A stretch of 64,000 nucleotides of DNA from Escherichia phage vB_EcoM_JNE01: sequence record OR670491; one strand, written 5' to 3'. The translations under genes and the position numbers were made by a program. Positions 54,270 through 55,824 of the stretch are shown here, piece by piece. Position 1 is the first letter of the stretch; each line of letters starts with the position of its first letter. Below the pieces are notes generated by a model. The model was not told the DNA's origin. It made no database searches and saw only the letters and a program-made list of their open reading frames with translations.

Positions 54270-54812
54270 ATGAAATTCTTTAAGAAGAAAGACGATTTAG
54301 ATTGGTGTGCGTATGTCCAAGAACGTAAGATTAATAAATGTATTTTTAAATTAATTACTAAAAGTATCTTACTCAAAGAAAGTATCAAAACGGATCAAGA
54401 CCGTAGAGATTTAATCAATTTAAAGTACAAAGTAAGTTCATTTTTCTTTTACAATCTAATGAAAGAAATTGCCACGAGTACAGATCCTGATCGTTGGGAT
54501 GTTGATGTTGACCGATATTACGGTGGGGACATTAGTTTCACTATTCGTGATAGAAAGAAGAATGTATCCATCAACGCGGATTATGATACTGCTGATAATG
54601 TTCAGTTTGATGATCCCAATTTACGAATTAAAGATGAAGAAGTCAGAGTGAGTATTCGCAAAGATTTTGTTAAAACACATTTAGAAAGTCCAGAGAAATT
54701 CATTATGATTTACTTTGTAATGGAGTACGTTAGTGTTACAGAAAATCTAAAGAATTTAAGAAGACTACAAAATGAGCACGAGCTAAAACTATCAGTCAGA
54801 GATTGGTACTAG
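54270..54812 (+). CDS. hypothetical protein, tandem paralog family C (1/3)
   Basis: MKFFKKKDDLDW...DQDRRDLINLKYKV; GGGAGG RBS. Confidence 0.5.
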   Translation: MKFFKKKDDLDWCAYVQERKINKCIFKLITKSILLKESIKTDQDRRDLINLKYKVSSFFFYNLMKEIATSTDPDRWDVDVDRYYGGDISFTIRDRKKNVSINADYDTADNVQFDDPNLRIKDEEVRVSIRKDFVKTHLESPEKFIMIYFVMEYVSVTENLKNLRRLQNEHELKLSVRDWY

Positions 54813-54820
54813 GAGAGAAC

Positions 54821-55339
54821 ATGTTTTTCAAAAAAGACAAAGTGGAAAAAGAAGAGAAGAATTTAAACTTTCTTAATGACATTATCCAAGTCCTTATGAA
54901 AAGTTATCAACTCAAAGATAAAGTACTGAATGATGACGACCGCCGATTGGTTATCGATATTAAGTACAAATTGAGTAAACATCCTTTACTAACTCTAATC
55001 ACAGAGATTGTTAAAGATCCACACGACAGCCGATGGAGATGGATTGAACAGTGTGCTTCCGTTTATTCCACTACTCGTTATGAATTACTTGACACAGTAA
55101 CTGACGTTCAAGTGGGTGTGCGATGCTTTGATATAAAAAACGCAACACGACACAAAAACATCCGAAGTTCTGTTGATTTTAATAGTGATGTATTAGTAGA
55201 AGACGAATCCATCTTTTTATTCTGTTTCTTGCACGGTTTGAATCAAATGTACACTACGATTTCAGTACTGAACCAGCAGCAGAAAAATCTACAAAAACGT
55301 AATGAAATTAAGGATTTATATCAATGTTCAAAATCTTAA
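54821..55339 (+). CDS. hypothetical protein, tandem paralog family C (2/3)
   Basis: MFFKKDKVEK...DDDRRLVIDIKYKL. Confidence 0.5.
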   Translation: MFFKKDKVEKEEKNLNFLNDIIQVLMKSYQLKDKVLNDDDRRLVIDIKYKLSKHPLLTLITEIVKDPHDSRWRWIEQCASVYSTTRYELLDTVTDVQVGVRCFDIKNATRHKNIRSSVDFNSDVLVEDESIFLFCFLHGLNQMYTTISVLNQQQKNLQKRNEIKDLYQCSKS

Positions 55340-55824
55340 AGAAGCAACAAGCAAATACAAATCCTCTTACTGAGTTCATTGGTTCACTTATTCTAAGCAA
55401 AAGTCCATTACTTGTTCAGCACTGCAAGGATGATTATGAACGTGAAATTATCATTAACAGAAAATACATTCATTCAAAATGTGACTCTATGATTTACAGC
55501 TTCGTAAAGTACTGCTTAGTGAATCGTAATTACGTCAGTGTTCATTGTGAAGATGAACCGTGTTATGATGGATGGGCGAAAGAATGGTTTATTTTTGAAA
55601 ATGGTCGTGGGTTCAAATTCTTTTCATTACCTGATGGTTCAGTTAGTATCTTCATCGCTAACAGAAATGAATGGGTAGAGTATTCCACATCAAAATATGA
55701 TTATGATGTTCTCGCTGATTTATATCGTTGTATTAAGAATTTTCAAGTAATTGAAGCCAATTTAGAAAAACAACGAAGAAATCTTAAATGCGTCGAACAA
55801 TACAATGAAATGTACAGGTGCTAA
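55324..55824 (+). CDS. hypothetical protein, tandem paralog family C (3/3, divergent)
   Basis: MFKILKKQQ...YEREIIINRKYI. Confidence 0.45.
   Translation: MFKILKKQQANTNPLTEFIGSLILSKSPLLVQHCKDDYEREIIINRKYIHSKCDSMIYSFVKYCLVNRNYVSVHCEDEPCYDGWAKEWFIFENGRGFKFFSLPDGSVSIFIANRNEWVEYSTSKYDYDVLADLYRCIKNFQVIEANLEKQRRNLKCVEQYNEMYRC

Follow-up and report, generated by a model that had tools for sequence, protein, structure and literature searches.

Rak2-like jumbo phages such as 121Q, phAPEC6, CBB, GAP32 and RaK2 are candidates for phage therapy, and about 80% of their genes are without known function. The PHROGs database holds phrog_18641 and phrog_7868 as two separate families, both without annotated function. 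Here we describe three adjacent genes of Escherichia phage vB_EcoM_JNE01, termed A, B and C (Table 1), which match these entries over their full length, A and B phrog_18641 and C phrog_7868. They were analyzed within a stretch of 64,000 nucleotides (nt) of sequence record OR670491, called the window in the following, and had been described in an original prediction as three tandem paralogs. Judged from sequence and profile comparisons, A, B and C are colinear, very diverged paralogs of one ancient family specific to Rak2-like jumbo phages, and the two PHROGs entries correspond to two old paralog lineages of this family within a syntenic tandem array. Among characterized systems, the array resembles the fibre-assembly proteins Tfa of lambda, Mu and P2 (Caudo_TAP) and gp38/gp57A of T4 in that the products are small and not detected in virions, the genes lie directly downstream of fibre genes and their variability roughly parallels that of the fibre region. 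It differs from them in that A–C have no sequence or fold similarity to these proteins, are preceded by a terminator, carry a sigma70-type promoter instead of a late motif and occur in a copy number unlike the fibre number. With phage plasticity cassettes the array shares deeply diverged alleles at one site, conserved flanks, a synonymous divergence (dS) discordant with these flanks, a host-type promoter, non-virion products and a variable copy number. Searches of Pfam, NCBIfam, PADLOC and PDB sequence profiles matched no known anti-defence family and, in contrast to many such cassettes, every lineage has members of this one family at the site, with their invariant residues kept.

Direct comparison of the three proteins by BLASTP aligned the N-terminal 52 amino acids (aa) of A and B (E=6e-8), while A–C (0.32) and B–C (0.024) were neither significant alone. 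For profile–profile comparison by hhalign we used the orthologue groups from 121Q, vB_Ec-M-J (here J) and phAPEC6 as profiles, and obtained a probability of 98.8% for A–B (E 4e-17, 149 columns), 87.6% for A–C (E 3.5e-6) and 51.8% for B–C (E 1.5e-4). Gene D, included as negative control, scored <0.5% against A, B and C. In PHROGs, phrog_18641 was matched by A (4.4e-20) and B (2.2e-32) with a weak cross-match of gene C (0.004), and phrog_7868 was matched by C (5.8e-21) with full-length cross-matches of A (3e-6) and B (3e-8). Profile alignment, named in the original prediction as the test that could refute it, thus detects homology for all three genes by both approaches. The three adjacent open reading frames (ORFs) at 54270, 54821 and 55324 had been placed correctly and the same three genes are annotated in Escherichia phage Turkey5; the Lys-rich N-termini quoted for A, B and C are found in the translations. 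The proposed shared D.DRR..I..KYK block is present in A (DQDRRDLINLKYK) and B (DDDRRLVIDIKYK) and in a weaker form in C (DDYEREIIINRKYI), which also carries a degenerate form of the D..RR.II..KY.LSK motif (DDYEREIIINRKY). The similarity of the C-terminal ends, which contain Tyr, was recovered as well. The third copy had been described as more divergent, which is explained by its position in the distance tree: gene C groups with GAP32_148, Yen9-04 g143 and Munch_174 and is by this tree a member of an older paralog lineage, while A and B form an Asteriusvirus-level pair. For A, B and C the ratio of nonsynonymous to synonymous substitution rates (dN/dS) is 0.06–0.25 in two genome pairs (window vs Turkey5 and 121Q vs J), and therefore they are real, constrained coding genes under purifying selection within allele types. 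In the BLASTP paralog table of the CBB genome paper the neighbouring fibres are present and the family genes are absent, and their paralogy has thus apparently escaped earlier description.

To see how far the family reaches, we searched 1.84 billion representative proteins exhaustively with a profile at a cut-off of E<=1e-3. This returned only 32 representative clusters, nearly all of 150–210 aa and most matched nearly full length. A word-indexed search of 5.8 billion proteins gave only 5 close matches, and a search of IMG/VR with gene B alone found no relative. A hidden Markov model (HMM) of the family built from the 32 representatives recognizes A, B and C with E values from 1.8e-35 to 3.2e-44 and finds no further copy elsewhere in the 64-kb window. 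The alignment of the 32 clusters is colinear, with K48 and Y167 invariant and S28, L31, R41, Y49 and D91 conserved to >=90% (numbering of B). Members share a common architecture, in which a Lys-rich N-terminus is followed by a basic helical domain with the K-S..L / D..RR.II..KY.LSK motif, then by a short beta sheet of acidic character showing the I.D...G.F pattern, and finally by ~45 residues of C-terminal helix with the invariant Tyr at the end. By tblastn and HMM scan we located members in Asteriusvirus, in Salmonella phage Munch and its relatives, in Mimasvirus (GAP32, CBB), in Eneladusvirus (Yersinia phage fHe-Yen9-04, Erwinia and Serratia phages), in Xanthomonas phage XbC2, in a RaK2/K64-1-like Klebsiella phage and in uncultured contigs of 250–350 kb. 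The number of copies per array is two in Alcyoneusvirus and the uncultured phage L014, three in Asteriusvirus and Munch, and four in GAP32, CBB and Yen9-04. Searches with A–C against Pfam gave no family at E<=1 besides noise, and those against the NCBI-curated families of NCBIfam, the models of known defence systems in PADLOC and PDB sequence profiles gave no match.

Structure prediction, likewise suggested in the original prediction, was performed with AlphaFold for the gene B protein. A run with an alignment of six sequences was unusable (predicted local distance difference test, pLDDT, 46.8) and was replaced by one with the 32-sequence alignment, which gave a confident model (pLDDT 89.6, predicted template modelling score 0.73). 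The model consists of a basic four-helix N-domain (helices 4–25, 30–34, 38–52 and 55–65), a small beta sheet of four strands within residues 72–118 and a 45-residue C-terminal helix (127–171). Across the family the mean net charge is +5.8 for the N-domain, which is always basic (+1 to +15), and -2.4 for the beta domain. The long C-terminal helix shows a 3-4 hydrophobic stripe in its first half and a charged second half ending in I163...Y167. A fold search of BFVD returned only unannotated jumbo-phage relatives, and all structural matches to the B model were under the usual significance levels. The top Foldseek match in the PDB, RnlA–RnlB, was dismissed as noise (E 0.7, probability 0.15). Among known proteins, the XRCC4, PAXX and SAS-6 scaffolds, which combine a head with a coiled coil, were considered as a possible comparison. 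By these tests the predicted fold appears to be without a characterized relative among solved structures or annotated viral models.

Next, we compared the locus between related genomes. The window belongs to Asteriusvirus, the 121Q-like Escherichia coli jumbo phages of ~350 kb. Its region 53500-57000 is 97.5% identical to Turkey5 and shows only partial matches to ~35 Asteriusvirus genomes (121Q, PBECO4, phAPEC6 and others). Between the window and 121Q the identity is 29% for A, 38% for B and 36% for C, while the flanking genes reach 62–75% (fibres), 61% (D), 75% (nucleotidyltransferase) and 87% (tail fibre). At the DNA level the match to 121Q breaks off at ~54261, immediately ahead of gene A, and the C-terminus of the fibre adjoining the cassette is conserved at ~74–78% of nucleotides. 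Phage A4 carries a third allele, which is 26–40% identical to both other types. The opposite pattern was observed for 121Q and J: here the cassette is 90–92% identical with dS of 0.14–0.42, whereas dS of the flanking genes is >1 and the fibres are 72–85% identical. From the variable cassette between conserved flanks and from dS values discordant with these flanks it follows that the triplet moves as a block. On this comparison, it behaves as an exchangeable hypervariable cassette with three allelic types in the genus.

The array has a fixed genomic address. In every lineage we found the order NrdD/NrdG, virion fibre cluster, family array, gene D (phrog_22376) and an RlaP-family nucleotidyltransferase, followed farther downstream by ACP, spanins and an HNH endonuclease; this synteny was seen in the window, Turkey5, 121Q, J, phAPEC6, A4, Munch, GAP32, CBB, Yen9-04, Alcyoneusvirus OU509535 and the uncultured L014. 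Gene A starts 71 nt past the fibre stop codon, and the fibre genes adjoin the array in all lineages examined. The predicted position 3' of tail-fibre-like genes was correct, as the upstream genes are of the virion fibre type: gp323c, the orthologue of the 899-aa fibre, was detected in the virion proteome of phAPEC6 together with gp314c and gp315c (PMC7247149). The orthologues of the triplet, gp319c–321c, were not detected in the same proteome, and CBB_150, 153, 155 and 156 are not among the CBB virion proteins. RlaP is found downstream of the array everywhere examined, and in GAP32, CBB and Yen9-04, which represent two genera, the array itself includes a Thg1 tRNA-His guanylyltransferase gene and a DUF4326 gene. 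RNA-repair enzymes such as RlaP and Thg1 are regarded as counter-defence functions (PMC7824862).

The fibre cluster of most genera consists of ~900-aa proteins similar to gp115 of phage EL, and some clusters add a 195-aa version comprising the C-terminal part only. In the window (48157-54199) the 899- and 908-aa fibre-like proteins and the 195-aa protein encoded between them share a C-terminal domain of ~115 aa (phrog_3573 / phrog_26864), which ends in a G.[TS]G[ST].(x)W motif, and the 195-aa gene looks like a C-terminal-only copy of the fibre proteins. These three proteins may be the unexplained hairs of 121Q, phAPEC6 and CBB. At the corresponding locus of phAPEC6 (L004, 3955-7368) no coding sequence is annotated for the 195-aa gene and the second ~900-aa fibre; only an ORF of 114 nt is given, so that either the annotation is incomplete or the gene is disrupted. 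Upstream of the array of the RaK2-like Klebsiella phage lie three ORFs that differ in size and C-terminal sequence from the other fibre clusters, and on the basis of size and position they are tentatively assigned to the end of the depolymerase long-tail-fibre cluster gp526–534.

We then analyzed the transcription signals around the array. An intrinsic terminator lies between the last fibre gene and gene A and, as read from the sequence, marks the end of the late fibre operon. Asteriusvirus, Munch, GAP32/CBB, Yen9-04 and the uncultured phage all have this terminator, with compensatory changes in the stem between genera. Nested in it is a sigma70-type promoter, whose -35 box occupies the terminator loop and 3' arm and whose spacer is formed by the T-run. 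The predicted transcription start at ~54251 is downstream of the terminator, and transcripts from this site would thus be without the hairpin. Counterparts of the promoter are TTGACG-17-TATAAT in 121Q, J and phAPEC6, a perfect TTGACA-17-TATAAT in Yen9-04 and TTGACA-17-GATAAT in L014; in Alcyoneusvirus the terminator is followed by a separate TTGACA-17-TAAAAT. The arrangement of terminator and promoter before the array is thereby kept in six lineages with covarying stems. In the window, sigma70 promoters close to the consensus (11/12 or better) occur 16 times on the coding strand and never on the other strand, compared with 2.4 expected by chance; the + strand holds nearly all genes. Four of the 16 are perfect TTGACA-N16/17-TATAAT promoters; examples of the 16 are found at 10163-10191, 20545-20573, 54029-54057 and 61407-61434. 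Several sigma70-type promoters are intragenic; the one at 54029-54057, for instance, precedes the terminator and falls within the 3' end of the gene for the 908-aa fibre. A comparable overlap of signals was observed at 61407-61460, where the gene for the 931-aa tail fibre is followed by a terminator hairpin of 13 bp whose 5' arm is overlapped by the -10 box of a perfect sigma70 promoter; transcripts starting there would be without the hairpin, and transcripts from upstream would terminate.

For late transcription the motif ATAAATA has been reported in CBB and GAP32 (PMC5259590). The window contains 5 copies compared with ~30 expected, a six-fold depletion over the 64 kb, as if this T4-like motif were strongly avoided except at genuine late promoters. 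Of the five copies, three are located 32–45 nt upstream of virion genes, namely a minus-strand Ig-domain structural gene, the first fibre gene at 48157 (40 nt behind the copy at 48117-48123) and a 42-aa gene at 57986 (45 nt behind the copy at 57941-57947). This last gene (57986-58114, phrog_29689) is the orthologue of phAPEC6 gp315c, a protein of 4.66 kDa with 69% coverage in the virion. The window scan found no ATAAATA ahead of gene A. In the window the late motif of T4, TATAAATA, occurs a single time; the informative motif was the shorter ATAAATA. From these signals we infer that the array would open its own non-late transcription unit, reaching from 54251 to ~57896. Gene C starts within gene B with an overlap of 16 nt, and plausible ribosome-binding sites precede all three genes (GGGAGG 8 nt before the start of A, TAGGAGAG before B and AAGGA before C). 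Genes D and E and the nucleotidyltransferase (55827-57896) are tightly packed and probably co-transcribed with A–C. The features are listed in Table 1.

Table 1. Positions of genes and predicted transcription signals in the 64-kb window
Feature	Position	Strand	Remarks
Gene A	54270-54812	+	180 aa; phrog_18641 type; family HMM E 1.8e-35
Gene B	54821-55339	+	172 aa; phrog_18641 type; family HMM E 3.7e-41
Gene C	55324-55824	+	166 aa; older phrog_7868 lineage; family HMM E 3.2e-44
Gene D	55827-56225	+	132 aa; phrog_22376; not a member of the A/B/C family
Gene E	56222-56671	+	149 aa; not a member of the A/B/C family
RlaP-family nucleotidyltransferase	56643/56655-57896	+	not a member of the A/B/C family
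Intrinsic terminator (predicted)	54205..54226	+	hairpin AAGCTCGTC-TATT-GACGGGCTT followed by a T-run; 6 nt past the stop of the 908-aa fibre gene
Sigma70-type promoter (predicted)	54216..54244	+	TTGACG-17-TATACT; scored 10/12
ATAAATA	34004-34010	-	motif scan
ATAAATA	39497-39503	-	motif scan
ATAAATA	39946-39952	+	motif scan
ATAAATA	48117-48123	+	motif scan
ATAAATA	57941-57947	+	motif scan

Two of the downstream genes showed further features. Gene D, which directly follows the family array in every case, weakly matches in its residues 30–122 the PADLOC model of a Shedu defence system nuclease domain, SduA/DUF4263 (E 0.0015). Gene E, located between D and the nucleotidyltransferase, is present in the window and Turkey5, while 121Q, J, phAPEC6 and A4 do not have it. 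Similarly sized ORFs were found at its position in the Alcyoneusvirus locus (L012, 11487-11999) and in L014 (11236-11694), the likeness being one of size and position only.

Because of the predicted separate host-type transcription, the non-virion status, the cassette exchange and the probable co-transcription with RNA-repair enzymes, we tentatively favour the interpretation that A–C form an early, non-structural accessory module for host interaction, host takeover or counter-defence rather than a part of the fibres, and assign to it a probability of roughly 40%. In such a module the genes would be transcribed by the host-type RNA polymerase holoenzyme in an early or pre-late phase and not with the fibres, and their products would act in the cytoplasm as small binding proteins. 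They might oligomerize via the amphipathic C-terminal helix, and the basic conserved N-domain might bind one shared partner, for which RNA or another nucleic acid is a candidate in view of the RNA-repair enzymes in the operon. The variable beta domain and the multiplicity of paralogs would then track variable host targets. Several points weigh against this interpretation. Sequence and structure searches gave no similarity to a known anti-defence, regulator or nucleic-acid-binding family, and that mass spectrometry did not detect the proteins in virions is evidence of a negative kind. If the proteins did no more than follow variable host targets, a set of polar residues kept invariant in such diverged paralogs would be unusual. 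A fibre cluster directly precedes the array in every case, even in Alcyoneusvirus, and this constant adjacency fits a fibre-linked role equally well. Furthermore, Rak2-like phages encode their own RpoD-like sigma factor (PMC11895373), and for this reason a sigma70-type promoter is no proof of early timing. A literature search found no transcriptome or functional data for the locus in any Rak2-like phage.

The strongest competing explanation, which we consider possible but rather unlikely, is that A–C act in trans as chaperones, helping to assemble the neighbouring fibre or whisker proteins without being built into the virion, analogous to Tfa, gp38 and gp57A. The array is directly 3' of the fibre cluster in 6 of the 6 lineages examined, including Alcyoneusvirus with its seemingly depolymerase-type cluster, and a size of 160–190 aa together with the absence from virions matches Tfa-like chaperones; the long amphipathic C-terminal helix also recalls helical chaperones. 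According to the RaK2 study, gp534, the last of the fibre proteins, was hard to express, and its type of fold normally depends on a chaperone (PMC10253068). The transcription signals point in another direction: between the fibre operon and A–C lies a conserved terminator, a sigma70-type promoter is dedicated to the array, and ATAAATA is missing before A, yet present before both flanking virion modules. As far as such motifs can tell, this argues against late co-expression with the fibres. The pattern of variability can be read in both ways. Nothing else in the region varies as much as the cassette and the fibres, and the most similar fibres and the most similar cassettes occur in the same pair, 121Q and J. 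However, the fibres of this pair are 72–85% identical compared with 90–92% for the cassette, and between the window and 121Q the divergence starts at the start codon of A with the fibre C-terminus conserved. In gp37/gp38-type pairs the fibre tip and the chaperone vary together. The copy numbers are also at odds with a chaperone role, with four copies for three fibres in GAP32 and Yen9-04 and two copies after the presumed nine-protein fibre cluster of Alcyoneusvirus. A model of one chaperone per fibre was rejected on the ratios of 3:3, 4:3 and 2:9, the last of which assumes the nine-protein cluster. Chaperone family models in Pfam were unmatched by A–C, chaperone models were also unmatched by all 32 family members, and no fold similarity to a solved fibre chaperone was found.

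Less probable still is that A–C are dimeric nucleic-acid-binding regulators, either phage transcription or translation factors or RNA-binding subunits for RlaP and Thg1, for which binding by the basic helical N-domain and dimerization by the C-terminal helix are proposed. The N-domain is indeed consistently basic, the most conserved motif is rich in R and K, and the operon is shared with RlaP, with Thg1 interleaved in GAP32, CBB and Yen9-04. On the other hand, no helix-turn-helix or RNA-binding Pfam model was matched, the structural matches all remained below significance, and the extreme divergence within the genus is unexpected for proteins acting on conserved phage sequences. That the likeness results from compositional chance (Lys-rich starts in an AT-rich genome) or that the ORFs are not genes is extremely improbable, since despite a G+C content of only ~35% and the non-significant BLASTP results for A–C and B–C the profile–profile and PHROGs cross-matches are significant, full-length and colinear with gene D scoring nothing, orthologues are kept in six lineages, dN/dS is low, and the family alignment yields a confident AlphaFold model; we regard this explanation as ruled out by the PHROGs, hhalign, family HMM and dN/dS results.

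Taken together, the A–C array is nothing out of the ordinary in kind, being a jumbo-phage array of paralogs specific to its lineage, and is now better characterized. Already known was a family catalogued in PHROGs, unannotated and split in two; new are the merging of both PHROGs entries into one family, a fold model that has no relative among solved structures or annotated viral models, a conserved nested terminator–promoter and the cassette behaviour. A more far-reaching version of the accessory module, which we put forward with considerable doubt, is that the family would represent a structurally new class of early non-virion effectors, in which homo- or hetero-oligomers of the paralogs together with RlaP and, in some genera, Thg1 neutralize variable host RNA-targeting defences and alleles are swapped as these defences change. 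As an equally novel alternative, the proteins may be a new class of chaperones that is expressed in advance for hair-like fibres. With a fold model, a fixed genomic address, a conserved regulatory element and cassette variability, the family has become a tractable experimental target. If A–C are a counter-defence or host-takeover module, they would provide a new effector fold; if they are chaperones, they would help to explain the construction of the unusual hairs and fibres in these phages and might make recombinant production of the latter easier.

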